A DNA stretch of 58,175 nucleotides. It comes from Candidatus Magasanikiibacteriota bacterium (lineage in GTDB: Bacteria > Patescibacteriota > Patescibacteriia > Magasanikbacterales > UBA922). Shown here piece by piece: positions 27,610-57,782 of this stretch. The translations under genes and the position numbers were made by a program. The DNA lies in contig DOYU01000013.1 in the NCBI GenBank assembly GCA_003518365.1, forward strand, positions 12,974 through 71,148, written 5' to 3'. The notes beneath the pieces are model-generated. The model ran no database searches and had not been told where the DNA came from. It saw only the letters and a program-made list of their open reading frames with translations. Position 1 is the stretch's first letter. Every line of letters begins with the position of its first letter.

Positions 27610-29001
27610 ATGCATGCAATTTATCGTACCAAACAACTCATATTGCTCTTAGGCGACATGCTTTTTTTGTTTATTGGTATCATGGGTGCCTTCTATATCA
27701 GACGCAAAGGAACCCCCACATTAGATGAAATATCAACAGGTCTTTTTTGGTTTAGTATTCTTATCGTCCTATGGATGGTCGTGCACTATATCAATGGCAT
27801 GTACAATATCGCCAAACATCGAAGAAAAACCGATGTCTACGTCACCATCATTCAATCTGCTGTCATCAATACACTTGTAGGTGTTCTCTTTTTTTATACA
27901 ATTCCCCCTGATTTTTTTAACCCAAAAACAATTTTACTCTTGAGCATACTGCTCGGATATTCACTCTTATTCTTCTGGCATCTTTTATTCTCAAATCTTT
28001 TTGCAAACAAACGATTTAACGCACGATTGCTCTTCATCGGGGATACTCCAGAGATGCATGAACTCGCAGAGCATATGTATGCACATCCAGAACGGGGCTA
28101 TTCTCTGGTCGCCTGGATATCTCCTCATAAACAGCTACAGAAAGAAGCATTTCCTCACACAACCTTTTATGAATCATCAAAGGCGATACGTCCTTCAGTA
28201 TCTGTACATGAAATAGACACCGTCGTGATTGCACCACAAGTAAAGGGAGACGACATCATATTGCGAGAATTGTACGAGCTCCTTTTTTGGCGGACTCGCA
28301 TTATCAGTATGACATCGTTGTATGAAATATTAACAGGCAGAATTCCTCCTCATACATTTTCTGAAAGCTGGTTTTTGGATCATCTCCAGCATGCATCTCA
28401 GCCAATATATGAGCACCTTCGTCGCATCATCGACATTATCATTGGCATCTGTCTTTTGCTTCTTTGTATAGCCCTATACCCCGTCCTTGCACTGCTTATC
28501 AGAATTGGCTCTCCAGGACCGATCATTTTTCATCAGGAACGTGTCGGGACAGGTGGATGCACTTTTCTCTTGTACAAATTTCGATCCATGTATGCACTTG
28601 CAGCAGATGGAAGTGCTGAAACAAAAGGAGTTGAATTCGCGCAAAAAAATGACAAACGTGTGACTGCTATAGGAAAATTTTTACGGAAGTCACGACTCGA
28701 TGAACTTCCACAAGCAATAAATTTGCTAAAAGGTGACATTAGTCTTATCGGACCACGACCAGAACGCCCTGAAATTGTAAGACAACTCGAGGACGTCATG
28801 CCATACTATCCAGTGCGCCATATTATCAAACCAGGCATAACAGGATGGGCCCAAATAAATCAACATTATACTGATACGATCGAACAATCACTCCAAAAAC
28901 TTCAATATGATCTGTACTATATAAAAAATAGATCGCTGCTCCTCGATCTATCGATTCTCCTGAAGACAGTGAATGTTGTGCTGCGAGGGATGGGACAGTA
29001 A
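27610..29001 (+). CDS. polyprenyl-phosphate glycosyl-1-phosphate (priming) transferase, WbaP/WsaP-type
   Basis: 463 aa with N-terminal TM segments and the C-terminal sugar-transferase domain PGPIIFHQERVG..YKFRSM..DELPQ..GDISLIGPRPERP. Confidence 0.88.
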   Translation: MHAIYRTKQLILLLGDMLFLFIGIMGAFYIRRKGTPTLDEISTGLFWFSILIVLWMVVHYINGMYNIAKHRRKTDVYVTIIQSAVINTLVGVLFFYTIPPDFFNPKTILLLSILLGYSLLFFWHLLFSNLFANKRFNARLLFIGDTPEMHELAEHMYAHPERGYSLVAWISPHKQLQKEAFPHTTFYESSKAIRPSVSVHEIDTVVIAPQVKGDDIILRELYELLFWRTRIISMTSLYEILTGRIPPHTFSESWFLDHLQHASQPIYEHLRRIIDIIIGICLLLLCIALYPVLALLIRIGSPGPIIFHQERVGTGGCTFLLYKFRSMYALAADGSAETKGVEFAQKNDKRVTAIGKFLRKSRLDELPQAINLLKGDISLIGPRPERPEIVRQLEDVMPYYPVRHIIKPGITGWAQINQHYTDTIEQSLQKLQYDLYYIKNRSLLLDLSILLKTVNVVLRGMGQ

Positions 29002-29019
29002 CACTGATACAACATACAT

Positions 29020-29061
29020 GGAAAAGAAAATACAAGGCTCTACCCTTGTATTTTCTTTTCC
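29020..29061. terminator. bidirectional terminator between convergent genes (18-bp stem)
   Basis: ggaaaagaaaatacaagg / ccttgtattttcttttcc. Confidence 0.65.
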
Positions 29062-29068
29062 AGACGAT

Positions 29069-29977
29069 CTAAAGTGTTTTAAGTTCTGCGATTCCCCGCT
29101 CTAGTTCAATAGTAGGCTCCCATCCAAGGAGTTCTTTTGCTTTTGCGATGTTTGCTTGCGTAAATCTCACATCTCCGGGGCGTGTATCAATATTCACAAA
29201 ATCACCGCCAATCAATGCTACAATATCATTGACTGAATGTGGGTTGTCATTCCCAATGTTGATTGTTTCTCCTTTTCCGACAGTGTCAGCAGTCATCGCA
29301 AGAATATTCGCACGAACAACATCGTCGACATGTGTATAATCACGATAATATTCACCATCACCGCACACAGTCATTGCTTCACCTTTTTTTACCTGCTCTA
29401 AAAACTTTGCGATCACAAGAGCATAGGCACCATGTGGATCAGCGTATGGACCATACACATTGAAATAAATCAAAGAAACCGTTTCTAGCTGGTATAATGA
29501 TGAAAAAATACGCGCATAGTGTTCTCCGATGAGTTTATGAAGCGCATATGGTGCAAGAGGCATTTTGACAGCACCGTCTTCTTTTACAGGATACATCTCT
29601 TTTGGCAAATCACCATAGGTGGAGGAGGAGGATGAAAACACAACCCGTTTGACACCAGCATCTCGTGCAGCAAGGAAGACGTTGAGTGTGCCGTTGACAT
29701 TCACGTCATGTGTTTCTTGTGGATGCTCTACAGAATATGTGACACGAGGGAGTGCTGCCATGTGAAATACGCCATCGACACCTTTCATAACGCGCAAAAG
29801 CATATCCATATCACGGATATCCCCTTCCACATACTCAGCTCCATCTTGGAGCCGTTCTTCTTTCTTTCCGCCGGCATAGTTATCAATGACACGAACGCTA
29901 TGACCGTCTGCGAGAAGTTGTTTTGTGAGATTCGTACCGATGAAGCCTGCGCCTCCTGTGATGAGATAGGTAGCCAT
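29069..29977 (-). CDS. NAD-dependent sugar-nucleotide 4-epimerase (TviC/WbpP-like)
   Basis: 302 aa with ITGGAGFIGTNL, SSSSTYG and YALHK (YxxxK). Confidence 0.8.
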   Translation of the reverse strand: MATYLITGGAGFIGTNLTKQLLADGHSVRVIDNYAGGKKEERLQDGAEYVEGDIRDMDMLLRVMKGVDGVFHMAALPRVTYSVEHPQETHDVNVNGTLNVFLAARDAGVKRVVFSSSSSTYGDLPKEMYPVKEDGAVKMPLAPYALHKLIGEHYARIFSSLYQLETVSLIYFNVYGPYADPHGAYALVIAKFLEQVKKGEAMTVCGDGEYYRDYTHVDDVVRANILAMTADTVGKGETINIGNDNPHSVNDIVALIGGDFVNIDTRPGDVRFTQANIAKAKELLGWEPTIELERGIAELKTL

Positions 29978-29983
29978 AATGTA

Positions 29984-31264
29984 CTATAATGTCCAGTAAG
30001 TTAATCCTTGTGTTTCAACTTTTTCCTTATCAAATACATGCTTTATGTCAGCAAAGAGAGCATGTTCATGTGTCATATTGACGAATTCCTGCATATCCAT
30101 ATTCATATACGCATCATGAGGAACTGCTACTATCACTGTATCAACTTTTGAAATTTCATTCAAATGAGAAAGAGAAATACCATATTCATGTTCCACGTCA
30201 ACGGTGTTTGCGAGAGGATCATGTAAAAATACATGGATACCAAAATCTTGTAATTCTTTATACAATGCGATATTTTTTGAATTTCTAATATCTGGAATAT
30301 TCTCTTTAAAGGTAGCCCCAAGAATTAATATCGACGCACTACTCACATCTTTTCCTTGTTGCACCATTTTTTTTATGATTTCATGAGCAACAAATTTATG
30401 CATACTATCATTTTGTCCTCTGCCGGCCAGAATTACTTCAGGTCGGTGTCCCACCTCAGTTGCTTTGTACGTGAGGTAATATGGATCGACACCAATACAG
30501 TGACCGCCGACGAGTCCAGGTTTGAATGGCAAAAAATTCCACTTTGTGCCGGCGGCACTCAAGACATCATATATACTTATACCCATTTTCGAAAAAAGAA
30601 TGGCAAGCTCATTCATGAGGGCTATATTTAAATCTCTCTGTGTATTTTCAATTACTTTCGCAGCCTCTGCTACTTGTATAGATGCAGCTATAAACGTCTG
30701 TGTGATAGCTCCATAGATACTGGCTATCAATTCTACCGTGTGTGCATCAGTACCAGATACAACTTTTGTGATTTTATCAATCGTATGTTCTTTATCTCCT
30801 GGATTTACCCTCTCTGGTGAATATCCTACAAAAAAATCTTCCCCATACACATATCCTGATGTAGATGCCAATAAAGGAACACAAATTTCCTCTGTCACTC
30901 CAGGATAGACAGTAGATTCATACACGACCACACTCCCTTTTTGAAGATATGTTCCTACGAGAGACGAAGCTTTTTTTACAATCGTTAAATCCGGAATATT
31001 ATTCCCATCGACAGGAGTCGGTACAGCCACGATGATAAAGGATGCATCTTTTATACGTGCAGGATCTGAGGTATATTCAATAGAAGCTTGCGCTAACTGA
31101 ATATCATCAACTTCCTTTGTCACATCTGTCCCAGATACCAATTGCTCAACACGATGTTCATTGATATCAAATCCAATAACCTGAAATTTCTTTGACAATA
31201 GCACGGCAAGAGGAAGCCCCACATAGCCAAGACCCACAACACAGATCTTTCTCTGTCCATTCAT
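29984..31264 (-). CDS. nucleotide-sugar 6-dehydrogenase (UDP-N-acetylhexosamine dehydrogenase, TviB/WbpO/WecC-like)
   Basis: The ORF track start is 31303. M14 (31264) gives MNGQRKICVVGLGYVGLPLA. The catalytic region reads GGHCIGVDPYYL. Confidence 0.8.
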   Translation of the reverse strand: MNGQRKICVVGLGYVGLPLAVLLSKKFQVIGFDINEHRVEQLVSGTDVTKEVDDIQLAQASIEYTSDPARIKDASFIIVAVPTPVDGNNIPDLTIVKKASSLVGTYLQKGSVVVYESTVYPGVTEEICVPLLASTSGYVYGEDFFVGYSPERVNPGDKEHTIDKITKVVSGTDAHTVELIASIYGAITQTFIAASIQVAEAAKVIENTQRDLNIALMNELAILFSKMGISIYDVLSAAGTKWNFLPFKPGLVGGHCIGVDPYYLTYKATEVGHRPEVILAGRGQNDSMHKFVAHEIIKKMVQQGKDVSSASILILGATFKENIPDIRNSKNIALYKELQDFGIHVFLHDPLANTVDVEHEYGISLSHLNEISKVDTVIVAVPHDAYMNMDMQEFVNMTHEHALFADIKHVFDKEKVETQGLTYWTL

Positions 31265-31314
31265 GAATTCTTCCTGTGTAGATGTACGCATACGTATGTT
31301 CAAAACAACTCGAT

Positions 31315-32694
31315 TTAAGACAAAAACGGACTTCCTACAGCAATAATACCAAAACCAGCTTCTTGCAAATCATGATATCGATGCTGGAGCATTCGTCGAC
31401 CATCCATCACCAACGGCTTTTTCTTTAATTCTCCGATCATCACATCTGCCAGTCCTCGAAATTGCGGCCAATCAGTCGCAAGAATCACGACATCAGCATC
31501 TTTGATAGCATCGAATTCATGTGAAGTATATCGTATCGTCGCTGATGCGGGAAACAATTCTTGGAACATCGGCAATGCAGAAGGATCATAGATTGCAATT
31601 TCCTCCACATTACGTTCTTGGCAAAAATGTGCGATGTCAATACTTGGCGTATTGCGTATATCGTTTGTATCACGCTTAAATGCTGTGCCAAGAAGTGCAA
31701 CCTTCTTCCCTTGCCATACAAAACCTGCTTCTCTTTCTGCTCGTGCCAAAAAAGTTTCAAGTTGCCTTCTATTTGCCGTATATGTTTCATTCACCAAGGT
31801 TGCTTCTTTTCCATTTGTCTGGAGCTGGTATGAAAGCGAACGAGCGTCTTTGATAAGGCAACTCCCTCCTGCGTATAAACTATCATAAAACCCCCATCCA
31901 CCAATTCGGGCATCGGACGCCACGATCTTACGAATGGATTCAAACTGGATATCAGAAAACGTTTCTGCCGTGCGACCAATAACATCAAAACACACGGCCA
32001 ATTTTGCAAACAGATAATAATTTGCAAGCAATTTTCCAGCAGCAGCTTCTTTTGGATTGACTTCTAAATATTTTACATCAGGAGCGTCATAAAATCGTTG
32101 ATACACATTCCGCATCACAGCAAAATCTTCTGGAGTCCAGGCGCCGACAACAATGCGATCAGGCTTCATAGCACCCTGAATAGCTTTTCCCTCTACAAGA
32201 AATTCTGGATTGGACACAACTCCATAGGCTTTTACGCCATGTCCATCCATTATATGTGCTGTCTGATCTACCATATCAATGGGAACCGTACTTTTGTTCA
32301 CGATAACGATACGTTTTTCTTGCGTTCCATTGTTTCTTTTGGTCAGAGCAACCGCCAATTCATTGGCAGCAGCTTTATAAAAAGACAAATCACTCTCACC
32401 ACTTTCCCCTACTTCTGGTGTAGGCAGACACATGAATACTGCGTCGCACGTATCAAGAAAATGTTCTACCTCAGTATATTGCGTCGTAAATGAGATGCGA
32501 TCAGCATGGCGTACGAGCATATCACCAAGTCCCTTCTCATAAAGGCATGACTCTATGGTGTCTCGGTCTCCACTCCCAAGTTTTTCTATTTTTTTTGCAT
32601 CAATATCATAGACAAGGACGTTATGTCCACTGTCTGCTGAAATAGCAGCTGAGCACGTCCCTACGAAACCAGCGCCGATGTAGAGGATATTCAT
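31315..32694 (-). CDS. ugd: UDP-glucose 6-dehydrogenase
   Basis: 459 aa with MNILYIGAGFVGTCSA and YAGGSCLIKD. Confidence 0.85.
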   Translation of the reverse strand: MNILYIGAGFVGTCSAAISADSGHNVLVYDIDAKKIEKLGSGDRDTIESCLYEKGLGDMLVRHADRISFTTQYTEVEHFLDTCDAVFMCLPTPEVGESGESDLSFYKAAANELAVALTKRNNGTQEKRIVIVNKSTVPIDMVDQTAHIMDGHGVKAYGVVSNPEFLVEGKAIQGAMKPDRIVVGAWTPEDFAVMRNVYQRFYDAPDVKYLEVNPKEAAAGKLLANYYLFAKLAVCFDVIGRTAETFSDIQFESIRKIVASDARIGGWGFYDSLYAGGSCLIKDARSLSYQLQTNGKEATLVNETYTANRRQLETFLARAEREAGFVWQGKKVALLGTAFKRDTNDIRNTPSIDIAHFCQERNVEEIAIYDPSALPMFQELFPASATIRYTSHEFDAIKDADVVILATDWPQFRGLADVMIGELKKKPLVMDGRRMLQHRYHDLQEAGFGIIAVGSPFLS

Positions 32695-32777
32695 AGATCT
32701 ACTTTTTTAATAGTCATCTTATACTAGCAAAGAAATAAAAGAATTTCAAGTATGTTGCCGGTGTCCGATCAAAGCAC

Positions 32778-33605
32778 TCAAGCTTCTTTTTTCTTTTCAA
32801 GACGGAAAACCAAAAGAACAATATGTCCACAACAAAAGCGCAATACCAATTCAAGCCCCTTCCTACACACCTTTGCGATAATATGCTTTGAACCATAGAG
32901 CAGTTGCAATGGACCTCGCAGAAAAGCGACTTCGTCTTTTAGGCCTTTCACAGCATCAAACGGGTATGCTTTCTCGAGTACAAATCCTTTTGCGCAGAGA
33001 TCATCAATAACCTGTTGTTTTGGTAAGGCAAATTGATAAAAATCATCAGGTTCTTCTGAAAAATGTCGATATTCATACTTTTTCAGGCGAGCTTTCATCT
33101 TACGCAACGGAGACATGTATGGAAATGTTACAAACAAATATCCTCCATCTTGTATAACTCGCGCCATCTCGTTTACAATGGGTGTATAGCCATAAAAAAA
33201 ATGTTCAATAACACCAAAAGACCAATACCCTTTGAACGCATTATCTTCAAAAGGTAAGGAACGGACGTCTCCTACTACCAATGGCAAATCGGGATACCAT
33301 TTTTTTACTTCTGCAATAGTTTGCTCAGCATAATCCACGCCAACGGGGTCATACCCCCAGCGACGAAGGGCATATACATATTGACCTCTTCCACATCCAC
33401 CTTCTAAGATCTTATCACTCTTTTCCAGATATGCATCTGTAAATTTTTTTACGTAACTAAAATCATGTACTGACGTCACCACTTCTTTTATACCAATCTC
33501 ATTCCAATGCGCATCCCAATACTCCTCTGTGGCATGATGTCCTAAAAACACGACAGACTTTTTTGTTGGATCGTAAAATAATGTACTCATATAGTATATA
33601 CACAC
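32778..33605 (-). CDS. class I SAM-dependent methyltransferase
   Basis: 275 aa with ILEGGCGRGQYVYAL and a typical post-I acidic residue. Confidence 0.75.
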   Translation of the reverse strand: MCIYYMSTLFYDPTKKSVVFLGHHATEEYWDAHWNEIGIKEVVTSVHDFSYVKKFTDAYLEKSDKILEGGCGRGQYVYALRRWGYDPVGVDYAEQTIAEVKKWYPDLPLVVGDVRSLPFEDNAFKGYWSFGVIEHFFYGYTPIVNEMARVIQDGGYLFVTFPYMSPLRKMKARLKKYEYRHFSEEPDDFYQFALPKQQVIDDLCAKGFVLEKAYPFDAVKGLKDEVAFLRGPLQLLYGSKHIIAKVCRKGLELVLRFCCGHIVLLVFRLEKKKEA

Positions 33606-33609
33606 TCAT

Positions 33610-33733: not shown

Positions 33734-33785
33734 AGATATACTCTTTTTAAGAGTCCTACTAGACTAGCAAAAAGACGAAAGAAGT

Positions 33786-34601
33786 TCAAGGAAGCTTTTC
33801 CCCTTGTATAATTACTACATAAAGAGGAGAGCATACTGGTAATACTCTGTCTAGCTTGCTGCAATATTTAATACATGTTGCATAAAAATGAGAATCTCTC
33901 AATGTGTCTTTTCTAAAGAAAAAAACAGGAATCGTAATCAAAAAAAGATGAGCTAAGAAAGAAAAAACTCCACCTAATCTATATACGGTGTATGGTTGCC
34001 CTGAAAATAACCCTTTTATACGTTTAGGGGTATATTGTCTAAATCCATGCCACAGATATAAAAACAGTGACCAAAATGATGGGACGATATGAATTTGAAC
34101 TGTATGAGTATCCCTTATCCATCCACGACACTTTTCTACTGTCAACGTATCATCATCAATATGCTCTAATGATGTATTAGAACAGATGACATCAAAGGTA
34201 TCTGTGGTTTCCCATTTTTCTATAGGAGACTCTACAAATGACGTTTGGAAAGCACCATGTGAGGTGATATCAAATTTTGGATGTTTTTCAATATCCACAC
34301 CGGTATAGGTTCCTGTATATCCGAGTACTTCAAAGACATCGCGAAGATATCCTGATCCACATCCAATATCCAACATATGAATTTCCTTTTGGTGCACAAA
34401 TGTGGGTATCTGAGATAAAAGAAATTCATCAAGATATAATCGACCAGGAGATCGACCAGACACATCAGATATATGTTTTGGTGCCCAATACGTTGATGTT
34501 ACAGAGGTCCACATACCGCCTATTCCCCTCATAAGATTATAGAACAAATACCAGATACCTTTAGGGACGCTAAGTCCATTGTCTGCTGAAAATTCTTTCA
34601 T
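33786..34601 (-). CDS. class I SAM-dependent methyltransferase with a hydrophobic C-terminus
   Basis: 271 aa with MLDIGCGSGYLRDV. Confidence 0.75.
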   Translation of the reverse strand: MKEFSADNGLSVPKGIWYLFYNLMRGIGGMWTSVTSTYWAPKHISDVSGRSPGRLYLDEFLLSQIPTFVHQKEIHMLDIGCGSGYLRDVFEVLGYTGTYTGVDIEKHPKFDITSHGAFQTSFVESPIEKWETTDTFDVICSNTSLEHIDDDTLTVEKCRGWIRDTHTVQIHIVPSFWSLFLYLWHGFRQYTPKRIKGLFSGQPYTVYRLGGVFSFLAHLFLITIPVFFFRKDTLRDSHFYATCIKYCSKLDRVLPVCSPLYVVIIQGEKLP

Positions 34602-34621
34602 AGATTCTGATGCCGTTATAT

Positions 34622-35422
34622 CTAGCTATTTTTTGATTGCTTTGTCAATTTTTTAATGATAATTTCCTGATTCATCGTAATATTTTTTTTAAATCGTAAA
34701 TAATCCCATAGTTTGGCAAATCTACCAATCGCAGAGGTATGTGGGCGGTACAATCGATACCACACAATATCACTTTTTTTTATCAATAACTGATCAATAT
34801 CTTTTTCAGTAACAAAGTTTATAGTTTCAAAAAAAGGAGTCCACTTTCCAATGAATTTCATATAGAGTGTTCTCATTCTTTTTGGGAAAAAAGTAGGAAA
34901 AGGTATTTTATAATGCCGTTCATAGAGAAAGGCATAGTTTGGCGTATTTATATATATCTTTCCCCCTGGTTTTGTCACACGGATTATTTGTTCCAGACAC
35001 TGGTTAATATCATCGACATGCTCAATGACCGTAAAGCAATGAACAATGTCAAACATGTTGTCCTCAAAGGAAAGTGTTTCACACGGTTCTTGTTTAAATT
35101 TTTCCCTTGGAATATTTGCCTGATCACATTGTAGATGTATAATGGTCATCTCTTCTTCACAGGGTTCTATGCCATACACGTCTACACCAAATTCTTTTTC
35201 AAGTACTATAGCAAGTCCCCCAGTCCCAGCCCCAATGATACAATGGCGTTGATTTTGAAATGACACATCAAGCAACGCTTCCATTTCTTTCATTCGTGTT
35301 GATTCTAACTGATCTTCCTTCAATCTTTGCGCTGTTCTTTCTTGCCAGTCGGGAAGTTTGCAACTATCCCGATAATATTTCGTATAGTATGTCTTGATTT
35401 TGTCCTCTAGTATCTTATCCAT
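34622..35422 (-). CDS. class I SAM-dependent methyltransferase
   Basis: 266 aa with CIIGAGTGGLAIVLE and DIVHCFTVIEHV. Confidence 0.75.
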   Translation of the reverse strand: MDKILEDKIKTYYTKYYRDSCKLPDWQERTAQRLKEDQLESTRMKEMEALLDVSFQNQRHCIIGAGTGGLAIVLEKEFGVDVYGIEPCEEEMTIIHLQCDQANIPREKFKQEPCETLSFEDNMFDIVHCFTVIEHVDDINQCLEQIIRVTKPGGKIYINTPNYAFLYERHYKIPFPTFFPKRMRTLYMKFIGKWTPFFETINFVTEKDIDQLLIKKSDIVWYRLYRPHTSAIGRFAKLWDYLRFKKNITMNQEIIIKKLTKQSKNS

Positions 35423-36161: not shown

Positions 36162-36162
36162 A

Positions 36163-36795: not shown

Positions 36796-36806
36796 ATCAA
36801 TATTCG

Positions 36807-38710: not shown

Positions 38711-38721
38711 ATAGGGATATA

Positions 38722-43533: not shown

Positions 43534-43546
43534 AGAATTCTTTGCA

Positions 43547-45831: not shown

Positions 45832-45844
45832 ATGTATACTACAG

Positions 45845-46909: not shown

Positions 46910-46951
46910 ATCAAGCGTATCTACGAATTGAATATATCAGGCGGACTTCCA

Positions 46952-48031: not shown

Positions 48032-48042
48032 ATAACAAAATA

Positions 48043-48708: not shown

Positions 48709-50626
48709 ACATGTGTGTTTCTAAATCAATAACATGATCTAATGAATAGTGTGCGTGAAGCCATATCGCGGCTTGTCTACCCAATCTTGGAAGTAATTCA
48801 GGAGTATTCACGATGGTGTGAAGCACACGTGACAGGTCTTCGACCGTAGGGGCCGCTAATAGCCCATTTTCTCCATCAATAATCACATTGCTGATTCCCT
48901 CTACGTCTGTTCCTACGACAGGGCATCCTGTTGCCATTGCCTCTAGCAACACTTTTGGATTTCCTTCATACAAACTTGGCAATACAAAGATATCACATGC
49001 ATGGAGGTATGATGGCAATTCATCATGCGGCTTATTGCCCAAAAAATCTACATCCAGATGCAATTCTTTTGACAGAGCCACTAATTCGTCTTTCATCTCT
49101 CCCTGCCCGATCATAGTGAGATGCACTTTTGGGAGAGTGGACAGTGAGCGAAAAAACACTGGCAAATTTTTTTGCTCTGTGAATCTTCCTATGAACAGTA
49201 CTTCCAAATTCCTTTCTTGTCTATACGTGTGTTCTTTGTGGCTTGGTGTAAATACACTGGTGTCTACAAAATTTGGGATAATACGTATGTTGTGTCTATA
49301 TTTTTCAGGATACCATGCTTTTTCGTTTTCTGTCGCTACCACGAGTGTTGCGCCAGCACGGATGGCAAATCTCTCGAGCACTTTTCCAAATGCATACCGT
49401 ACCCATTGTTTTTTCCGTTTCGCAAAATAACTATACGTATAACCGGTACGAATGATAAGCGGTTTTTTCACGAGCCACTGGGCTACGATCGCTGCCCAAC
49501 TTCCCATCATCTGATTTGTTTTCAATATGTTCATTTGCTTAAGCGTCTTTCTATGTATAAACGGTACCAACCAAGAATAGAGCATATTAGGCATATGCGC
49601 AGGCTTTGGATGGACAATGATATTGTCTTTTGCTAGTTCGGCAACAAAACGGGTATCTTCCTGACTATATGTAAATAAATGGACAGTTCCATATTCCTTG
49701 GCAATTCGTTTGTAGAGGGCTATTTCTCTATGATACATACCAATCTTCTCCCATACTGACAAAGAAATGCCATAAGTGAAGAATAATGCCACTTTTGGTG
49801 TTGTATTTTTTGGTAGTAAAGAAGACATATTAGTTGTTTTTTTTCGTAACAGGGTACGTTGGACAGAACGCGGTAATAGTACCCAGCCAAGTCTCATGCC
49901 AATATACCAAATTCCTATGAAAAAGGGATAGCCGTATCTGGTAATCGCATACCAACGTGCCCGTATGCCATCCCATTGTTGTCGTGTACTTTTTGCAGAA
50001 ATACTATTGTCATGATCACGCCAAGACAACAAGGGCGCAGAAATATTTGCCAGTGCATATGTCTTACTCAATCGAAATAGCAATTCATAATCCTGACTCT
50101 TTTTAAAAGAAAGATCATACCATCCAAGCTCTTTCAGACAAGATACTCGAATCATCAGACTACTATGCACAAATACATTGTTGAAAAGCAGCTGCGTTCG
50201 TATGTCTGCATCTTCTGTCGGGACATCCTTTTTACCTATGATCTTCCCATTGCTATCGATGATATGCGCAGCACTCCCGACAGCAGCAATATCCTTGTGT
50301 GCTTCGAGAAATGCATATTGCACAGAAAATCGTTCTGGTGTGGCAATATCATCGGCATCCATACGAGCGATATATGCCCCTTGCGCTTCTTCACACGCTC
50401 TGTTGAGTGATGCCGTGAGCCCCAGATTCGTCTGATTCGTGAGTACACGAATACGAGGATCATTGGCCGCTATCTGTGCAAGAACATCAGCAGACGCATC
50501 TTTTGAAGCATCATTGACAATGAGAAATTCAAAATCATCAAAGGTCTGCGCCAAGATGCTCTTCACAGCCGCTTCGAGATACAAGGCTCCATTGTAGACG
50601 CTCATGATGACAGTAATGGCTGGCAT
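48689..50626 (-). CDS. bifunctional glycosyltransferase (N-terminal GT2 fused to C-terminal GT4)
   Basis: The ORF track start is 50824. M67 (50626) gives MPAITVIMSVYNGALYLE..IVNDASKD..MDADD. The C-terminal half has YEGNPKVLLEAMATGCPVVGT. Confidence 0.8.
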   Translation of the reverse strand: MPAITVIMSVYNGALYLEAAVKSILAQTFDDFEFLIVNDASKDASADVLAQIAANDPRIRVLTNQTNLGLTASLNRACEEAQGAYIARMDADDIATPERFSVQYAFLEAHKDIAAVGSAAHIIDSNGKIIGKKDVPTEDADIRTQLLFNNVFVHSSLMIRVSCLKELGWYDLSFKKSQDYELLFRLSKTYALANISAPLLSWRDHDNSISAKSTRQQWDGIRARWYAITRYGYPFFIGIWYIGMRLGWVLLPRSVQRTLLRKKTTNMSSLLPKNTTPKVALFFTYGISLSVWEKIGMYHREIALYKRIAKEYGTVHLFTYSQEDTRFVAELAKDNIIVHPKPAHMPNMLYSWLVPFIHRKTLKQMNILKTNQMMGSWAAIVAQWLVKKPLIIRTGYTYSYFAKRKKQWVRYAFGKVLERFAIRAGATLVVATENEKAWYPEKYRHNIRIIPNFVDTSVFTPSHKEHTYRQERNLEVLFIGRFTEQKNLPVFFRSLSTLPKVHLTMIGQGEMKDELVALSKELHLDVDFLGNKPHDELPSYLHACDIFVLPSLYEGNPKVLLEAMATGCPVVGTDVEGISNVIIDGENGLLAAPTVEDLSRVLHTIVNTPELLPRLGRQAAIWLHAHYSLDHVIDLETHMYEEISV

Positions 50627-50695
50627 AAATTTGCTTATTTTAGCAGAAATAGTATAATGGACCTCTACATATGTGTCAAGAAAAATTTTCTTCAT

Positions 50696-51862
50696 ATGAC
50701 CATACTTCTCGCTATCACCCAGACACATTGGGGAGGGGCGCAACAATACGTGTATGATATTGCGTTGGGCTATATGACGGCAGGGCATACCGTTGTCGTA
50801 GCAGCAGGCGAAGATGCACAACACAGTACCCTATTTCAAAAATTGAATGCAAAAGGCATTGAAACACATGCGCTTCGCTCTCTGCGCAGATCCTTCCATC
50901 CAGTCCATGATATACTCGCAATAGTTGAATTTTCCCGTCTGTTGCAAAGCATACAGCCAAATCTGGTACATCTCAACAGCTCAAAAATGAGTATTATTGG
51001 GACACTGGGGTTGCGGCATAGTCGATTGACAGCAAAACTTATCTATACAGCACATGGATGGGTTTTCCATGAAGACCATCATCCTGCACGAACATATGTG
51101 TACACATGGCTCGAAAAATATACCGCACCTGACAAAGATGCGATCATCACGGTGTCGCAAAAAGATGCTGATACCGCATATACAGTTCTGGGCTATCCAA
51201 AGGAAAAAACTCATTGCATTCATTTAGGCATATCAACACATACACCGATGCCTGCATCTGAGGCAAAAAAGAAACTCTCTACACAATATGGTGTCCCGAA
51301 CACTCAAGGTCAGATACTTTTTGGGACAATTGCAAATTTTTATCACACAAAAGGAATTGATATCTACCTCCATGCTCTCGCATTGCTAGCAAAAGAACAA
51401 GGACTCCCTCCATGGCATGCGATCATTATAGGAGATGGAGAACAAAAAAAAATTCTCCAATCTCTCATTGAAACATATCACTTGCAACAGCAAGTGACCC
51501 TTCCTGGCTTTATTGCCGAGGCATCGTCATATGTCCCTGCCTTCGATTGGTATGTACTCCCCTCTCGAAAAGAAGGATTCCCCTATGTTCTCCTAGAAGC
51601 GGCAACAGCAAATATCCCAATTATTGCGACCAATGTAGGCGGCGTCTCTGAATTTGTAGAAGATACAAAAACAGGTTTTCTGGTTACACCAAAAAATCCA
51701 CAGGATCTGAGGAGAGCTTTGCACGATGCCTTACAGACACCTGCCACAACCAAAGAAAGTATGCAAAAAAATCTTGCAGGAGCGCTGAAACAATATCAGT
51801 TCAAATCCATGATTACTCAGACTCTGGCACTGGTTCAAGCAATATTTCAGGAAGCTCCATAA
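50696..51862 (+). CDS. glycosyltransferase family 4
   Basis: The ORF track start is 50657. M14 (50696) gives MTILLAITQTHWGGAQQYV. Motif: KEGFPYVLLEAATANIPIIAT. Confidence 0.82.
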   Translation: MTILLAITQTHWGGAQQYVYDIALGYMTAGHTVVVAAGEDAQHSTLFQKLNAKGIETHALRSLRRSFHPVHDILAIVEFSRLLQSIQPNLVHLNSSKMSIIGTLGLRHSRLTAKLIYTAHGWVFHEDHHPARTYVYTWLEKYTAPDKDAIITVSQKDADTAYTVLGYPKEKTHCIHLGISTHTPMPASEAKKKLSTQYGVPNTQGQILFGTIANFYHTKGIDIYLHALALLAKEQGLPPWHAIIIGDGEQKKILQSLIETYHLQQQVTLPGFIAEASSYVPAFDWYVLPSRKEGFPYVLLEAATANIPIIATNVGGVSEFVEDTKTGFLVTPKNPQDLRRALHDALQTPATTKESMQKNLAGALKQYQFKSMITQTLALVQAIFQEAP

Positions 51863-53891
51863 TGGCATCACGAATAATCGCTCCTTCTGAGTGAAAGGTG
51901 ACTCCCAGTTCTTCTGCTTCTCGAATGACTTTTTTTGCTTCCCCTATTTGCCCCAATTGTTTCAAATATGCTGCTTTTCGCCACCATCCTTCTTGGACGA
52001 GTGGTTCAGCCGCTATGGTCTCATCGATGAGTGCAAAGGCTTCCTCGGTTTTGCCGAGCTGCATTTTTATCACAGACAAGAAATACTTCACTTGTTGTCT
52101 TTGTGGAGAATACTCCATAGCCTGGGTTATGATTTGTTCAGCATGGAGCACGTAATCCAGCTTTGAGGTGAGATACGTTGCGTATTGATCTAGCTGTGCA
52201 AGTGACAGATAATATCGTATATCCAGGGGATGGAGTTGTATATTTTTTTCAAGAGCGTCTATCGCTACTTGGACAAGCTTTTCTACTTGTTCATCAGTAT
52301 TCTGTTTTCTGAGACTTTCAGCTTGCCCTCCTACCGTACGAGCAAAGTCAGCTCGGATATCATCTATATGTGGAGAAGGGTATGAGGCTATCTGATCATA
52401 CGACGAAAGAATAGTATCGATATTTCCACTTTGAAACGACCGTATTGTCGCAACCGTAGCCATATTTGCCCGTGCAGGATTTATATTTGTCGTATAGATG
52501 AGTAGTACCACACACAGCATCACAAGTCCGGAAAGAGGTCCTATAGTTACTTTTTGAGACACTGCTTTCTTTTTTTCCTCTCCGGCACTGGCCGTGGCTT
52601 GCTTTTCTGAAGTAATCAGTACGTGTACATATCCCAACATGAAGAAGAAAAAGAGCGATGACGTAAGATCTTCAAATACGAAAAAATTGTGAACAAAATG
52701 AGCCGCAAAGAAACAAGCAAATACTATATATTCCAATTTCAGAAAATCACTTTCTTCTCTCTTGGCGCGCAGAAGCAATATAATAGCAGGCAGAGCAAAG
52801 AGCAATACATAACTCACTGCCCCCAAAATGCCTTGGACAGCGAGGGTATTTAAGAACGCATTATGCGCACTATCAAACCATGTTTCTCCCACTCCATGTG
52901 TTAAAAATTTTGGGCGATAATATTTGTTAAATGCAAAAAAATAGCCGGCAGGACCCCAACCAAAGACTGGCTTTTCTTCCCATGCTTCCACTGCAATACC
53001 CCATGCCATTACACGTGTTTCTGCAGAATCCGCACTCAGAGATGTATTTAATAAGCGTCCAACACCAGGAATAGCCTTCACAAAGGACGTTTCTCTGACG
53101 AAAAAGAGCGCCCCGGCAAGAATCAGTAAACTCACAAAACCAACAGCAAGATATCTTCGCACGGAAGCCTGTCTGGAAAAAATCATCACCAAAAACAAAC
53201 AAAGAACCACAGCACCAATCAGTGCCAGCAATGTCCCTCGTGTCCCGCTCAACAATACGGCAAGCGCGGAAATAATAACACCAGCCCCATATATCCATCT
53301 ATGCAATCGTTCTTTTCCTTTCAGGAATAGTACGGTTGACAAAAAGAACAAAAATAAAGCATACCCACCATAGTAAATAGGATTCCCTAATGTTGAAGAC
53401 ACACGGTCGCTTCCTCTATTCAATAAAAACTCAGGGTTTACCACTTGCCAAAATCCAATAAGCAATACTCCCATTCCCATCCCAAAAAACCATGGAAAAA
53501 GGGATTGCCACGCTTCTCTTGTACGAAAGACTGAAGATAAAATAAGAAAGTAAAGAACATAGTGGATGATGGTAAAGGTTCCCAGCATACGCTCATGCCC
53601 ATCCCAAAAACTACGATACCAATCAACACCCACAAAGGTTGATATTACCCAGCTTGCTAAAAAGAAAAGAACACTCAAGGAGACCACGCTCAATCGAGGT
53701 TTATAGGTTTGCCAATCATTCTTCAATAATAATATATATACTCCAAGCATGAGCAGGACAATGCTTCGGAAAACAACAGCCTTCAATACAATAAATGGAA
53801 AAATAAACTGTTGCGCGAGCACCAACAAAGGGATACAAAAAGACGCTATCGTCAACCATGTCATCACCTTTGTGTACGTAGAAATTCTCAT
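51813..53891 (-). CDS. O-antigen ligase/Wzy_C-family polytopic membrane protein with a C-terminal TPR domain (candidate O-oligosaccharyltransferase)
   Basis: 692 aa. The first ~450 aa are multi-TM with a large loop, as in the Wzy_C family. The last ~200 aa form TPR-like helical repeats (YYLSLAQLDQY.., EEAFALIDETIAAEP, WRKAAYLKQLGQIGEAKKVI). Confidence 0.75.
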   Translation of the reverse strand: MRISTYTKVMTWLTIASFCIPLLVLAQQFIFPFIVLKAVVFRSIVLLMLGVYILLLKNDWQTYKPRLSVVSLSVLFFLASWVISTFVGVDWYRSFWDGHERMLGTFTIIHYVLYFLILSSVFRTREAWQSLFPWFFGMGMGVLLIGFWQVVNPEFLLNRGSDRVSSTLGNPIYYGGYALFLFFLSTVLFLKGKERLHRWIYGAGVIISALAVLLSGTRGTLLALIGAVVLCLFLVMIFSRQASVRRYLAVGFVSLLILAGALFFVRETSFVKAIPGVGRLLNTSLSADSAETRVMAWGIAVEAWEEKPVFGWGPAGYFFAFNKYYRPKFLTHGVGETWFDSAHNAFLNTLAVQGILGAVSYVLLFALPAIILLLRAKREESDFLKLEYIVFACFFAAHFVHNFFVFEDLTSSLFFFFMLGYVHVLITSEKQATASAGEEKKKAVSQKVTIGPLSGLVMLCVVLLIYTTNINPARANMATVATIRSFQSGNIDTILSSYDQIASYPSPHIDDIRADFARTVGGQAESLRKQNTDEQVEKLVQVAIDALEKNIQLHPLDIRYYLSLAQLDQYATYLTSKLDYVLHAEQIITQAMEYSPQRQQVKYFLSVIKMQLGKTEEAFALIDETIAAEPLVQEGWWRKAAYLKQLGQIGEAKKVIREAEELGVTFHSEGAIIRDAIMELPEILLEPVPESE

Positions 53892-53975
53892 ACAAGGATA
53901 GGATATTTCATGAATAAGAAGAAATACAAGATCGTACTCATCATATCAAAAGTGATGCCTCGTGACAAGCATAGA

Positions 53976-54003
53976 AAAAGACCTGCCGAAAGGCAGGTCT
54001 TTT
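53976..54003. terminator. bidirectional terminator after the surface-protein gene
   Basis: Hairpin aaaagacctgcc-gaaa-ggcaggtctttt. Confidence 0.65.
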
Positions 54004-54059
54004 CTATGTCGAATCCTCTAGGAGGACGCTACATGTATGTAGACGAGAGGTACTTCCTA

Positions 54060-57000
54060 TTAGAAGGAAAGTGCACTTCCGTTTACATCGTAACTATCTG
54101 AAGCAGTGTATGCTGTACTATTTTCACTACCATTTACTGGTGTGTAGAAGTAAGTCATTACACCATCAGCCCAGTAGTCTTCGTAGTCATCATCTGCAGA
54201 TTCGTATCCAGTAGCTCCATCAAGTTTTGCACTGAGGAGTGCATTGTTTCCAGAGCTGAGACCTGTACGGATATTTGAAGTATTCGCAGTAACAGTAAAG
54301 GTCTTTGTTTCACCAGCTGAGAGAACGAAGTTAGCAAGTCGGCTCGATGTATCATTTACAGGACCGAAAGCAATCGTCAAACTTGGTGTAGTTGTACTGA
54401 GAACATCTGCCATGTATGGACTAGCGATAGTACTTGTATTTGCAAGGAGGGTAGAACCATCATACAACTTGAAGTCGTAGACATATCCTTCTCCAGCAAG
54501 TCCTGATACAGAAAGGTAGACAGATGTCGTACTAATTCTCATATCACGTGCACCTGGGTTGGTAACCGTGTATTTGAAAACAGTTGTTTCTGTATCTGGC
54601 GTAGCACTTCCACTTGGTGCACCACTTGCGAGTGCAATAACAGGAGCAGTGTTGTGGAAGAGCATCTGGTTTGATGCAGCTTCGTTCAACAGACCTGCGG
54701 CAACCACCGTACTTGTACCAATCTTCGTTGCAGCAAGGAGACCTTGACCACCGTATGCTTCAAGGTAAGTATTACCATCACTGTAGAGTGCAGCTCGAGC
54801 AACATTTGCAGGAACCATTGTTCCAGAATTATTTACCATTGCGTAGAGTGACAATTTTTCAGTTGCACCAGAAGCAATCGTAGTACTAAATCCTGTGAAT
54901 GTGACAAGAGCATCAGTACCATTGTCTACAACAGGTGCAGTCGCAAGGACAGCTCCCGCTGCATTACGGAGTTCGAAATCTCCGTAGTTTGAAGATGATG
55001 CTTTGCTAGCGTTGTCATGATTTCGCAATGAGAAGGTAAGCTTCGTCAAATTGATGTCACTGTTTTGTGCTTCAAACTTATACTTCGCAACAAGTTGTTT
55101 TGTTGCAGATGGTGTCAAAATCTTACTTTCAACAGAACTGTCGTTCGTGACAATAAGTTTTTCTGAACCGTATGTAATAGCTTGAAGATCTGTAGCAACG
55201 ACACTTCCAGCAGCATTTTGACCGGTGGTAACACCAGTCGCGGTAATGCTCTCTACTGAAGGAGTAAATGCAGTACCGTCAGCAGCATCTGACTGTACGT
55301 CAGCCTTTACGTCAATAGTAACGACTTCATTAACAGCAAGTGCCTTGCTGATAGAGAATGTTGTACTTGCACTTGGACTTACTGTTTCAGTACCAAGTTG
55401 TGTACTTCCAATCCACAATCCTACATTTTCTACGTCTCGTGCACCCGTACTTAGTGGAAGACTCAGAACAATAGATGATACATTCACTCCTTCACTGCTG
55501 CCAGCTTGGAGTTTGAATGAACCAATAACTACGTCCTGTGCACCAATTGCAACAGTCTTATTTCCTACAGAAGTATTCTTCGCAAGAGTCAGACTTGCTG
55601 GGTTTACAGTGACGGTATTTGCAGGGTATGCAGTAGTACTATTTGGTTTTGTTTGGTAATCCAAACTTGAAAGTCTCTTCAAGTAGAATTTACCAACCTT
55701 TACCATGTAGGTATCAACAGCAGTTGCTCCATCAGCGACGTTCGCAGTGACGCGAATAGTCTTTGATTCACCAGACTTGATTGTCAAGTATGTAGACAGA
55801 TCAAGTTGTGTACCACTTGCAAATGATGAATCTGCAGTAGAAGTTGTGTTTACAACATTTGTGTATGCAGTAGAAAGATATGTCTTTCCTGTTGCAACGT
55901 CAACAACTTTTACATTTCCAGTAAGGTCTGGATCACCAGCTCCATCGTATGCTTCGATTTCGAGAGCCATTTTTCTGATTTCAACAGCTTCACCAACAGC
56001 TTTCAAGGTGTATTCAGCAAGAACAGTGTCAGATCCACCAGCAGCAATGCTTGCGCTAGGTGATGCTGATGACTTTTGTACTGAGAGAGTACCTTGTTTC
56101 ATCTTGAACCAACCTGTAGCTGATGCGTATCCACCACTAGCAAAACTAGTAGGTGCAACGAAATATCCACTGCTTGATCCCTTTGCCTTTACATCATAGT
56201 CATTTTGGATGTAGAGAGCAAAGTAATCGTTTGATCCGTCAACAACGTCTACTTTTACGGTAAAGTTGTCAGAATCACCTTTATCAAGAGTGTAGTTCAT
56301 TGGGACAGTGACATATCGATCACCAGAAGCCCATTCTTTTGTACCGAGTACTTGTCCTGTTGGACCATAGATAGTCCAGTTCTTCAATGAAGTATCTTCA
56401 TTGATCGAACCTTGAACAAAGAACGTAACACTCTGTACATTCAATGCTTCGTTTCCACTTTCAGCAAGTGTAAATTTGAAGACTTCTTTTTGTGTGTCTC
56501 CAATTTCGAGCTGTCCTTCATTTGCTGAACTTGCAGCAGCTGTTTCATTATCATATCCAGAAACAGCAGTTGTTGTTACTGTGTAACTAGCAAGTGTACC
56601 TGGAGTTACTGTAGCTTGACTTCCTACAACAGGAAGACCGCTTACACTGACATTACCAGTTGTGTCAACAGCTGTTGCACGGAAGGTAAATGATGCAGCA
56701 GAAGCACCAGCAGCAACGTTTACTTGCAAAGATGCAGTAACACTGCTATTTGCAGGGACAACGATAGGATTTGAACCAAATCCGATTTCAGCCATGCCAT
56801 CATCATCGAGAGAAGAAACAACCGCACCATGGCGATCACTTCCTACCCAGACGCTAACACCACTAAAACCAGTGTTTGCAACAAGACCTGACTTTTGAAC
56901 AGTCAAACCTGTAACTGAAACAGGCTCATTTCCAGCAGTAAGACGCACGTGGAGGACATCATTAAAGATACTTCCTTGTGCAGCTACTGTGGAAGGAGAT

Positions 57001-57782
57001 GTAGCAGCGAGGCTTGCTTGGAGAGATCCTGTGACAACAGGTGTACCAGGAGTTCCACTTCCACCACCCTGTGAAGGGTCAGCGATAATGGATGCAGCTG
57101 TTACAGGAGTAGCGCTTGCTTCTACTGCGTCAAAAAGTGCAGTAGACACAGTGCGTACGTCTCCAGCGAGGAATGAAGAAAGACTTCCTTCTACTGAATG
57201 GCGCATACCATCTTTCACGTACCAGACTCCTGATCCGTTATTCTTGATAAGCATACCATTGTGAACGCCACTTACTTCAGCACCAGTCGTATAGTTTGGC
57301 CAGTGGAAGTCGTGAACGTCACGAACAAGTGTTCCCCAGTTATCACCATAAAGTGATTTTGCTTCGTCTTCACTTCCGATCAGATGACGCATGTTGCCAG
57401 GTCCGACAGCATACACTTCTGGAGAGATAACAACCTTCACAAGGCGTGAGCCTGGTCGGTAGTCAACACCAGATGGGTTTACTGCGTTTGGGTATGCGCT
57501 TACACATGTAGAATCAATTTCCACAACTCCTGAAAAATCACTGTACCATGTGTGGTACAAATCAGATGTTGGGAAGTACATGCGCTTCATGTCTGAATCG
57601 AGGAGATAAACAGCGCTGTTGCCTTTTACTTTGAAAAGGTCACCAGCTTCGAGCGTAGGACATTCTGCAGCATTTGCAGCAAGAGGTGCAGCAAGTGCAG
57701 AAAGACCGATACTCCATGCTATCGTCATTACAACGACAGACCATGTAAATGCTTTTTTTGTAATGTTAATTACATCAGTCAT
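54060..57782 (-). CDS. large secreted cell-surface (S-layer-like) protein with repeated Ig-like modules
   Basis: 1240 aa with a signal peptide (..LAANA|AE) and a ~160-aa N-terminal domain shared with ORF 26015..27547. After that come at least 8 Ser/Thr/Ala/Val/Gly-rich modules ending in patterns such as GESKTIRVTANV and GETKTFTVTANT. Confidence 0.85.
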   Translation of the reverse strand: MTDVINITKKAFTWSVVVMTIAWSIGLSALAAPLAANAAECPTLEAGDLFKVKGNSAVYLLDSDMKRMYFPTSDLYHTWYSDFSGVVEIDSTCVSAYPNAVNPSGVDYRPGSRLVKVVISPEVYAVGPGNMRHLIGSEDEAKSLYGDNWGTLVRDVHDFHWPNYTTGAEVSGVHNGMLIKNNGSGVWYVKDGMRHSVEGSLSSFLAGDVRTVSTALFDAVEASATPVTAASIIADPSQGGGSGTPGTPVVTGSLQASLAATSPSTVAAQGSIFNDVLHVRLTAGNEPVSVTGLTVQKSGLVANTGFSGVSVWVGSDRHGAVVSSLDDDGMAEIGFGSNPIVVPANSSVTASLQVNVAAGASAASFTFRATAVDTTGNVSVSGLPVVGSQATVTPGTLASYTVTTTAVSGYDNETAAASSANEGQLEIGDTQKEVFKFTLAESGNEALNVQSVTFFVQGSINEDTSLKNWTIYGPTGQVLGTKEWASGDRYVTVPMNYTLDKGDSDNFTVKVDVVDGSNDYFALYIQNDYDVKAKGSSSGYFVAPTSFASGGYASATGWFKMKQGTLSVQKSSASPSASIAAGGSDTVLAEYTLKAVGEAVEIRKMALEIEAYDGAGDPDLTGNVKVVDVATGKTYLSTAYTNVVNTTSTADSSFASGTQLDLSTYLTIKSGESKTIRVTANVADGATAVDTYMVKVGKFYLKRLSSLDYQTKPNSTTAYPANTVTVNPASLTLAKNTSVGNKTVAIGAQDVVIGSFKLQAGSSEGVNVSSIVLSLPLSTGARDVENVGLWIGSTQLGTETVSPSASTTFSISKALAVNEVVTIDVKADVQSDAADGTAFTPSVESITATGVTTGQNAAGSVVATDLQAITYGSEKLIVTNDSSVESKILTPSATKQLVAKYKFEAQNSDINLTKLTFSLRNHDNASKASSSNYGDFELRNAAGAVLATAPVVDNGTDALVTFTGFSTTIASGATEKLSLYAMVNNSGTMVPANVARAALYSDGNTYLEAYGGQGLLAATKIGTSTVVAAGLLNEAASNQMLFHNTAPVIALASGAPSGSATPDTETTVFKYTVTNPGARDMRISTTSVYLSVSGLAGEGYVYDFKLYDGSTLLANTSTIASPYMADVLSTTTPSLTIAFGPVNDTSSRLANFVLSAGETKTFTVTANTSNIRTGLSSGNNALLSAKLDGATGYESADDDYEDYWADGVMTYFYTPVNGSENSTAYTASDSYDVNGSALSF

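Follow-up and report, generated by a model that had tools for sequence, protein, structure and literature searches.

We judge the chance to be about even that the locus described here serves the en-bloc O-glycosylation of proteins, of the type known from S-layer glycan (slg) loci and from PglL, in a monoderm bacterium of the candidate phyla radiation (CPR). The locus (27610-57782) lies in a 58-kb stretch of DNA, the whole of which was analyzed and is called the window below. On the minus strand it encodes a 1240-aa secreted surface protein, directly downstream of it a membrane enzyme that combines a Wzy_C domain with tetratricopeptide repeats (Wzy_C-TPR), and then a long cluster of glycan genes. 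The window matched genomes of Candidatus Magasanikbacteria (CPR/Patescibacteria) from Rifle groundwater. An identical copy of the Wzy_C-TPR protein was found on Rifle groundwater contigs of up to ~300 kb and in two NCBI CPR assemblies, and its homologues are annotated as Candidatus Magasanikbacteria, Parcubacteria, or Patescibacteria. The gene inventory was obtained from an open reading frame (ORF) listing and from Pfam and NCBIfam scans of the window, which found the components listed in an earlier note on this DNA where that note had placed them. For comparison, loci of the enzyme family (at least 587 confirmed) were collected from species-representative genomes. Profile searches were run on the 80 best loci, and upstream linkage was counted in those 63 for which 5 kb or more of sequence upstream was available.

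The Wzy_C-TPR protein has a WaaL-like fold

The Wzy_C-TPR protein (51813-53891, minus strand), a candidate O-oligosaccharyltransferase or ligase, matched the Wzy_C profile (PF04932) over residues 204-361 with 71.5 bits (cut-off 31.7). An AlphaFold2 (AF2) model was built on 42 homologues (pLDDT 87.7, pTM 0.88). It comprises 12 WaaL-like transmembrane (TM) helices, of which TM9 and TM10 are joined by a large external loop. A lysine-rich loop on the cytoplasmic side, one further TM helix (the 13th), and a TPR domain (residues ~491-678) follow. The best Foldseek match in the Protein Data Bank (PDB) was WaaL (7TPG_B; E 5.4e-6, TMt 0.68, 444 columns), which was spanned over its whole length, and all other matches were TPR proteins such as OGT. 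A sequence search of the PDB returned TPR proteins only; WaaL was reached by the fold search. Structure prediction, a check that the earlier note had itself proposed, thus gave a WaaL-like fold, and the note's assignment of a Wzy_C protein with a TPR tail was borne out.

Three residues of the enzyme, Arg218, Arg293, and His343, were invariant in the 42 homologues. They were matched by their position in the Wzy_C match and by numbering, rather than by residue-level structural alignment, to the functionally important Arg215, Arg288, and His338 of Escherichia coli WaaL, which are conserved in PglL as Arg224, Arg298, and His349 (PMC3643930). The predicted cytoplasmic loops are all rich in lysine and arginine. 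Because the lysine-rich loop 439-451, between TM12 and TM13, precedes the 13th helix, the model and the positive-inside rule together place the TPR domain outside the membrane, probably on the same side as the catalytic loop. Invariant polar residues are found within the TPR domain as well (His508, Asp510, Asp511, Asp515, His554, Asp557, Arg559, Arg598-Gln600, and Arg638), and its ligand therefore appears to be conserved across species.

The likeness to WaaL (TMt 0.68) extends over the 12-TM core and the catalytic-loop residues, and it raises the question of whether the enzyme is a lipoglycan ligase that transfers a flipped glycan onto a membrane glycolipid, in the manner of WaaL, in a bacterium without lipopolysaccharide (LPS). 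Such a ligase would agree with the sugar-on-lipid acceptor of this closest solved structure, with the conserved Arg/Arg/His set, and with the near-universal occurrence of the enzyme in the lineage (at least 587 loci), as expected for a core envelope function. However, the Wzy_C-TPR protein differs from WaaL by the 13th TM helix and an external TPR domain of ~200 aa, and its gene lies outside an LPS locus. The external TPR domain, the adjacency to a gene for a secreted protein, and the small TPR partner ORFs described below would all be left unexplained. No gene for the synthesis of a glycolipid anchor was identified in the window, and the Pfam and NCBIfam scans detected no lipid A, LytR-CpsA-Psr (LCP), Wzx, or Wzz genes in it (no Polysacc_synt or Wzz match). 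CPR are placed with lineages of monoderm and atypical monoderm type, and a lipid A-core acceptor is not expected in them; to our knowledge, they lack LPS. We therefore regard a lipoglycan ligase as improbable.

The enzyme is linked to a secreted-protein gene and neighbors variable glycan genes

A homologue of the surface-protein gene was present upstream of the Wzy_C-TPR gene, on the same strand, in 43 of the 63 loci. A gene for an extracytoplasmic function (ECF) sigma factor, followed by a DUF5667 gene, was found in addition in 35 of 39 loci with a surface-protein homologue. A glycosyltransferase (GT) of family GT4, convergent to the enzyme gene, was kept in the same position in 22 of 73 loci. 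Nine loci contained a second Wzy_C paralogue between the surface-protein gene and the main enzyme gene. In three loci (L008, 7093-9974; L009, 7134-10004; L010, 7123-9996), a longer Wzy_C paralogue (722-746 aa) was accompanied by a TPR-only protein (204-230 aa), both encoded in this intervening position. The tandem Wzy_C paralogues downstream of the presumed target gene resemble the TfpO plus PglL arrangement of Acinetobacter.

In some loci without the surface-protein family, the place directly upstream of the enzyme gene is taken by another large secreted protein, which is phospholipase-C-like (1124-1296 aa) or a Ser/Thr-rich repeat protein. The 1124-1296-aa ORFs (L037, L050, L064, L066, and L083) end ~100-500 nt before the Wzy_C-TPR gene. 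In their N-terminal motifs (HP.I...ED.PTRWLNHFYDP) these proteins look similar to zinc phospholipase C.

The Wzy_C-TPR protein was 40-54% identical across loci, whereas the downstream content of GTs, sugar-nucleotide and short-chain dehydrogenase/reductase (SDR) enzymes, and methyltransferases differed by species. A conserved enzyme beside variable glycan genes suits a transferase with relaxed specificity and not a repeat-unit polymerase such as Wzy, TuaE, or WpaA/B: neither Wzx nor Wzz is encoded in the window, and the enzyme stays this similar despite different sets of GTs, whereas the sequence of such a polymerase would be expected to co-vary with its repeat unit. This bears on the idea that the cluster makes a free capsule or exopolysaccharide, with the Wzy_C protein acting as a Wzy-type polymerase and the adjacency of the surface-protein gene reflecting shared clustering of envelope genes. 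Three observations point that way: a weak match to TIGR04370, a model of oligosaccharide repeat-unit polymerases (22.7 bits, below the cut-off of 40); a Wzx-like gene in one relative locus (L008); and the ABC exporter encoded in the cluster, for which HepA, a heterocyst-polysaccharide exporter, was the nearest curated family. Same-strand synteny in 43 of 63 loci is, however, far above chance, the enzyme is conserved across variable glycan genes, and the window scans revealed neither Wzz or another polysaccharide copolymerase nor an outer export component. A free polysaccharide is thus the least probable of the readings, and we give it little credence.

The 1240-aa surface protein is a candidate acceptor

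The protein encoded upstream of the enzyme (54060-57782, minus strand) is, by composition and AF2 model, a candidate S-layer-like glycoprotein and acceptor. In agreement with the earlier note, which had described a Ser/Thr-rich secreted protein of 1240 aa beside the enzyme, it starts with a signal-peptide-like N-terminus ending in ANA-AE and has a combined Ser and Thr content of 23%, as against ~11% in its neighbors. The mature protein is acidic (pI 4.58) and contains 2 cysteines. Pfam gave no match. The AF2 model (pLDDT 84.6) shows an alpha/beta module (residues 41-235), a disordered linker (residues ~238-251), and then about 8-9 Ig-like beta-sandwich domains. The linker, GGGSGTPGTPVV, is rich in Ser, Thr, Gly, and Pro, and in most homologues it is of low complexity and mostly rich in the same residues. 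Foldseek returned generic multi-Ig matches only for this model and no S-layer structure; we deduce from composition and architecture that the protein is a candidate S-layer protein. In Magasanikbacteria the family ranges from 1210 to 1290 aa; the first 240 residues are well conserved, and the sequences diverge rapidly thereafter.

The N-terminal module (residues 41-235; window 57078-57662, minus strand) is uncatalogued and not confined to this family. It was found in 3549 representative clusters at E<=1e-3 and in 2426 at 1e-10, within proteins of 195-2248 aa and nearly always straight after the signal peptide. A second copy, 30% identical, is present in a 526-aa secreted protein encoded in the window (26015-27595). 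Pfam gave only a weak choline-binding-repeat-like match for the module, whose distribution resembles that of a general module for surface anchoring or targeting. The 526-aa protein itself showed a marginal, sub-threshold match to a TSP3 repeat (Pfam E 0.014, 15.7 bits).

These properties of the module bring in a different explanation of the locus, in which the cluster makes a uronic-acid-rich anionic secondary wall glycopolymer resembling teichuronic acid. The Wzy_C-TPR protein would polymerize this polymer or ligate it to the wall, in line with what has been suggested for TuaE or for WpaA/WpaB of Bacillus anthracis. The surface protein would be unglycosylated and would bind the polymer through its N-terminal module, as SLH and CWB2 domains bind secondary cell wall polymers (SCWPs). 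In favor of an anchoring polymer are the occurrence of the module behind the signal peptide of thousands of secreted proteins of 195-2248 aa, among them the protein at 26015-27595; its weak likeness to choline-binding repeats; two dehydrogenases in the cluster that form uronic acids; and several GTs with weak matches to the TuaC, TuaG, and TuaD models. Bacillus S-layer genes, moreover, adjoin SCWP genes. Yet no LCP, Wzx, or Wzz gene is present in the window, and a polymerase is not needed with an export route of the ABC type. A conserved enzyme beside variable glycan genes is also unlike Wzy polymerases, and a conserved binding module would need a conserved ligand. We know of no Wzy_C enzyme that ligates a glycan to peptidoglycan. 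Taking both sides together, we consider an anchoring polymer unlikely, although clearly less so than the lipoglycan ligase.

A related proposal, about equally unlikely in our estimation, is that the Wzy_C-TPR protein serves as a lineage-wide envelope ligase of the LPS-less CPR. It would attach species-variable glycans to peptidoglycan or to a membrane glycolipid in place of LCP enzymes, with the N-terminal module, in the 1240-aa protein as in thousands of further CPR surface proteins, as the matching glycan-binding anchor. If this were true, the ligase and the module would constitute a new anchoring system for S-layer and other surface proteins and a WaaL-type ligase in a monoderm.

The surface-protein gene is flanked by putative regulatory elements

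The surface-protein gene is preceded by a leader of ~300 nt. Within it lies a conserved stem-loop (57944-57998, minus strand), with the outer arms ACUGUAUGGC and GCCAUACAGU and an inner hairpin of variable sequence that is always self-complementary. This element was found in 28 of 43 homologous upstream regions (sites in L011-L088) at a distance of 43-253 nt, mostly 127-253 nt, from the ORF start. RNAalifold predicted 15 pairs, 7 of them with compensatory changes. Rfam gave no match for the element, which may be a 5' stabilizing hairpin or a regulator site.

The spacer between the surface-protein gene and the enzyme gene measures 168 nt. It contains, directly 3' of the stop codon, an intrinsic-terminator-like hairpin followed by a T-run (53975-54010, minus strand; -32.7 kcal/mol, z = -6.5). 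A promoter-like site before the enzyme gene, TTGTCA-17-TGnTATGAT (53940-53968, minus strand), was recognized by consensus match only. Because of its own leader with the stem-loop, the strong terminator, and the promoter-like site that follows for the enzyme, the surface-protein gene gives the impression of a unit of its own with strong expression. Directly upstream of it are the genes for the ECF sigma factor and the DUF5667 membrane protein as well as a divergent HTH_17 gene. The sigma factor/DUF5667 arrangement lies beyond the end of the window (L001, 3139-5799), with the last 27 codons at window positions 58090-58175. The two proteins may form a regulatory pair dedicated to the surface protein; an ECF-type promoter upstream of the surface-protein gene could not be defined convincingly in an alignment of eight loci.

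The glycan gene cluster

From 53891 down to 29069, the minus strand is nearly free of gaps between coding regions. The sole break is the convergent plus-strand GT4 gene (50657-51862), a semi-conserved core member that faces the Wzy_C-TPR gene. The cluster is capped by a convergent gene for a priming polyprenyl-phosphate hexose-1-phosphate transferase of the WbaP/WcaJ class (27610-29001, plus strand). Its product matched Bac_transf with 204 bits and TIGR03025 with 368 bits, above the cut-off of 295.55. All genes named in the following paragraphs are on the minus strand.

Three adjacent genes encode a TviC-like SDR epimerase/dehydratase, probably a 4-epimerase (29069-29977; closest model TviC), a TviB-like NDP-sugar 6-dehydrogenase of the UDP-GlcNAc 6-dehydrogenase type (29984-31303; TviB 462 bits, below the cut-off of 592), and a Ugd/AglM/TuaD-like UDP-glucose 6-dehydrogenase (31315-32694; NCBIfam). 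By family assignment, this trio is the predicted source of uronic acids. The SDR protein encoded at 40557-41507, which the earlier note had taken for a UDP-xylose enzyme, belongs to the proposed family. Its function is ambiguous between a UXS/ArnA-like UDP-xylose synthase (a decarboxylase) and an RmlB-like 4,6-dehydratase.

Seven S-adenosylmethionine (SAM) methyltransferases of the Methyltransf_11/23/25 families were recognized by Pfam (32778-33605, 33786-34601, 34622-35422, 36163-36795, 37808-38710, 45049-45870, and 48043-48708), as the earlier note had counted. The NodB-like deacetylase it had named (35415-36224) matched Polysacc_deac_1 weakly (26.5 bits). Its eight to nine glycosyltransferases came to six proteins with seven GT domains within 27610-57782, and the higher number is reached only by adding 20739-21917 and 22316-22975, which lie outside. 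Besides the convergent GT4, the six are two GT4 proteins (36807-37811 and 46952-48070), a GT2/GT7-like (GT-A) protein (41516-42850), a GT2 protein (43547-44218), all by Pfam, and a GT2-GT4 fusion of 645 aa (48689-50626). The gene of this fusion opens the long glycan operon on the minus strand. Its start, formerly put at 50824, was revised; it is most likely at 50626, which lies behind a promoter-like TTGACA-17-TATACT with an 11/12 match to the sigma-70 consensus.

The fused transmembrane domain-nucleotide-binding domain (TMD-NBD) type IV exporter of the ATP-binding cassette (ABC) family (38722-40545; ABC_membrane plus ABC_tran) had been described as having the architecture of PglK. The fusion was confirmed; among curated families, however, HepA was closest (426 bits, cut-off 725), followed by MsbA (362 bits), and PglK reached only 243 bits (cut-off 1000). 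The exporter is thus no equivalog-level match to PglK, with which it shares architecture only, and its PDB matches were ABCB1, MsbA, and Sav1866. With Campylobacter PglK and Anabaena HepA it has in common that a single-polypeptide TMD-NBD type IV exporter is encoded inside a glycan-assembly locus, although its scores are below all equivalog cut-offs. It is a candidate flippase for the lipid-linked glycan.

The reported NeuB-like/cytidylyltransferase pair likewise held at the family level, but both members scored far below equivalog cut-offs. These are a CTP_transf_3 cytidylyltransferase resembling PseF and KdsB (42943-43599) and a short NeuB-family protein of 255 aa (44220-44987; 86 bits against the PseI cut-off of 340, and below the PseI and NeuB equivalog cut-offs). 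Two genes from the latter, between a methyltransferase and a GT4 gene, lies the gene for a soluble 354-aa protein (45845-46909), for which Pfam (at E<=5), NCBIfam, and the PDB gave no match. Copies 55-57% identical occur in the related glycan loci L012 and L025, and the protein is possibly an uncatalogued transferase. No genes for the supply of UDP-hexoses were identified by the window scans, so that the description of the system as self-contained is unproven.

A model for en-bloc O-glycosylation and its relation to known systems

The reading we favor comprises five steps. The WbaP-class transferase would prime polyprenyl phosphate. The six GTs with their seven domains, perhaps joined by the 354-aa protein, would then assemble an oligosaccharide on the cytoplasmic face; the glycan is predicted to be rich in uronic acids (glucuronic and N-acetylhexosaminuronic acid) and heavily O-methylated, and it may bear a CMP-activated acidic sugar. 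The fused ABC exporter would flip the lipid-linked glycan. Outside the membrane, the WaaL-fold Wzy_C-TPR enzyme would transfer it to Ser/Thr of secreted proteins, with the abundant-looking multi-Ig protein encoded directly upstream as the leading acceptor candidate. Finally, the external TPR domain would serve to hold the protein acceptor, whose disordered S/T/G/P linker after the N-terminal module would be the most likely first site of glycosylation. Relaxed-specificity en-bloc transfer to secreted proteins, with the neighboring protein as the prime target, is favored because a conserved enzyme stands beside variable glycan genes, Wzx and Wzz are lacking in the window, the exporter is of the ABC type, the enzyme carries an external protein-binding domain, and its adjacency to a secreted Ser/Thr-rich protein is conserved. 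The analysis itself shows the family and fold assignments, the logic of the topology, the synteny, and the variability of the glycan genes; acceptor, glycan composition, S-layer status of the protein, and flippase role are inferred from these.

The closest parallel is provided by the slg loci of Paenibacillus alvei and Geobacillus stearothermophilus (WsfP/WsaP), which share a WbaP-class primer and cytoplasmic assembly with methylation; ABC export is as in Geobacillus, and the target is an S-layer protein in a monoderm envelope (PMC2943079), here a candidate. A TPR is found at the C-terminus of both WsfB and PglL, and for WsaB a separate TPR protein, WsaA, is encoded alongside (PMC2943079). In the present locus, too, priming transferase, GTs, methyltransferases, and exporter lie together, and the Wzy_C transferase bears a C-terminal TPR like WsfB; the small TPR ORFs of L008-L010 recall the WsaA/WsaB pair. 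The comparison with WsfB and WsaB is one of described features, not of sequence. Unlike in slg loci, the exporter is a fused TMD-NBD protein rather than Wzm/Wzt, and the presumed target lacks an SLH domain and instead has a CPR-specific N-terminal module. The locus further differs in its uronic acids, seven methyltransferases, and NeuB-like/cytidylyltransferase pair, and in its occurrence in an uncultivated CPR lineage.

With the PglL/TfpO/PilO enzymes of Proteobacteria, the protein shares the Wzy_C domain with Arg/Arg/His, an implied relaxed donor specificity, and a candidate acceptor site in a flexible low-complexity region, as described for PglL (PMC3643930). Its gene is adjacent to and co-oriented with that of the presumed target, outside an LPS locus; pglL adjoins the gene of its target in 21 of 31 cases (PMC3643930). 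In contrast to the PglL systems, the presumed target is a 1240-aa multi-Ig protein and not a pilin, no pilin gene is present in the window, and the organism, as a CPR bacterium, presumably has neither a periplasm nor an outer membrane. A pilin was considered as a local target and rejected: a class III signal peptide was found in none of the window's ORFs, and the PilT-like ATPase gene (19343-20377) and the transferase gene are over 30 kb apart.

Several observations weigh against O-glycosylation. PglL_A (PF15864), which separates PglL from WaaL, was detected in the Wzy_C-TPR protein neither at E<=0.001 nor at E<=5; the definition of this motif covers Proteobacteria only. The one relative with a solved structure, WaaL, takes a carbohydrate acceptor, and polysaccharide export scaffolds also contain TPR domains. 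Sequence and fold alone do not tell whether the acceptor is a protein, a carbohydrate, or a lipid. No surface-protein gene lies upstream in 20 of the 63 loci, and with an N-terminal module that is widespread and anchor-like, the linkage could mean an anchor polymer and an anchored protein rather than an enzyme and its substrate. The Bacteroidetes-type sequon D(S/T)(A/I/L/V/M/T), tried as a signature of acceptor sites, occurs at 3 sites where ~7 would be expected by chance on a rough composition estimate, and it was dismissed as a signal. The exporter and the nonulosonate-like enzymes score below every equivalog cut-off. The O-oligosaccharyltransferase proposed by the earlier note is hence supported by fold, Arg/Arg/His, external TPR domain, and linkage in 43 of 63 loci, and it is weakened by the missing PglL_A and by an acceptor type that these data do not distinguish.

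The same note's statement that the combination matches no described system was overstated, because the slg/WsfB pattern, already described, has a Wzy_C protein with TPR next to a glycan locus and an S-layer gene. Known counterparts exist for each part, and the logic is that of slg and PglL; nothing comparable was found described in a CPR lineage. A literature search on CPR/Patescibacteria combined with O-antigen ligase, S-layer glycosylation, or teichoic acid returned nothing specific, and no paper was found that names CPR surface-layer proteins or any CPR protein-glycosylation enzyme. What this analysis adds is the module conserved across the lineage, consisting of ECF sigma factor, DUF5667 protein, surface protein, and Wzy_C-TPR enzyme.

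Other features of the window

Genes for a GT4, a DUF2304 protein, a GT2, and an SDR protein (20739-24028, minus strand; Pfam) lie outside 27610-57782. The minus-strand region 20739-27595 encodes the GT4, the DUF2304 small membrane protein with the GT2 of 219 aa, the SDR protein, an S8 subtilase with an FG-GAP repeat, and the 526-aa secreted protein. DUF2304 and the 219-aa GT2 are possibly a polyprenyl-phosphate sugar synthase pair, and the envelope-glycan region may start near 20739. A 466-aa ORF (10412-11812, plus strand) with ~12 hydrophobic segments had no Pfam or NCBIfam match and a local GC content of 50%, as against a window mean of ~41%. A gene of the 23S rRNA-intervening-sequence-protein family (7558-7920, minus strand; four-helix bundle, also bAvd-like) is located between the IF-2 and thioredoxin genes. 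The remaining window is of housekeeping character (LeuRS, IF-2, TruB, RNase Y, PBP2, the PilT-like ATPase, and two tRNAs).

Implications

CPR/Patescibacteria make up a large share of bacterial diversity and live attached to other cells. Surface layers have reportedly been seen by cryo-electron microscopy on ultra-small groundwater cells. The locus offers a conserved candidate target-transferase pair next to a hypervariable glycan island; as a putative surface-layer glycoprotein of CPR with its transferase, the pair is open to testing. E. coli would serve for such tests, with no need to cultivate the organism, and an O-transferase of relaxed specificity from a new lineage could serve glycoengineering. 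For the bacteria themselves, the hypervariable glycan island would represent surface variation of a kind from which effects on host attachment and phage evasion are expected.

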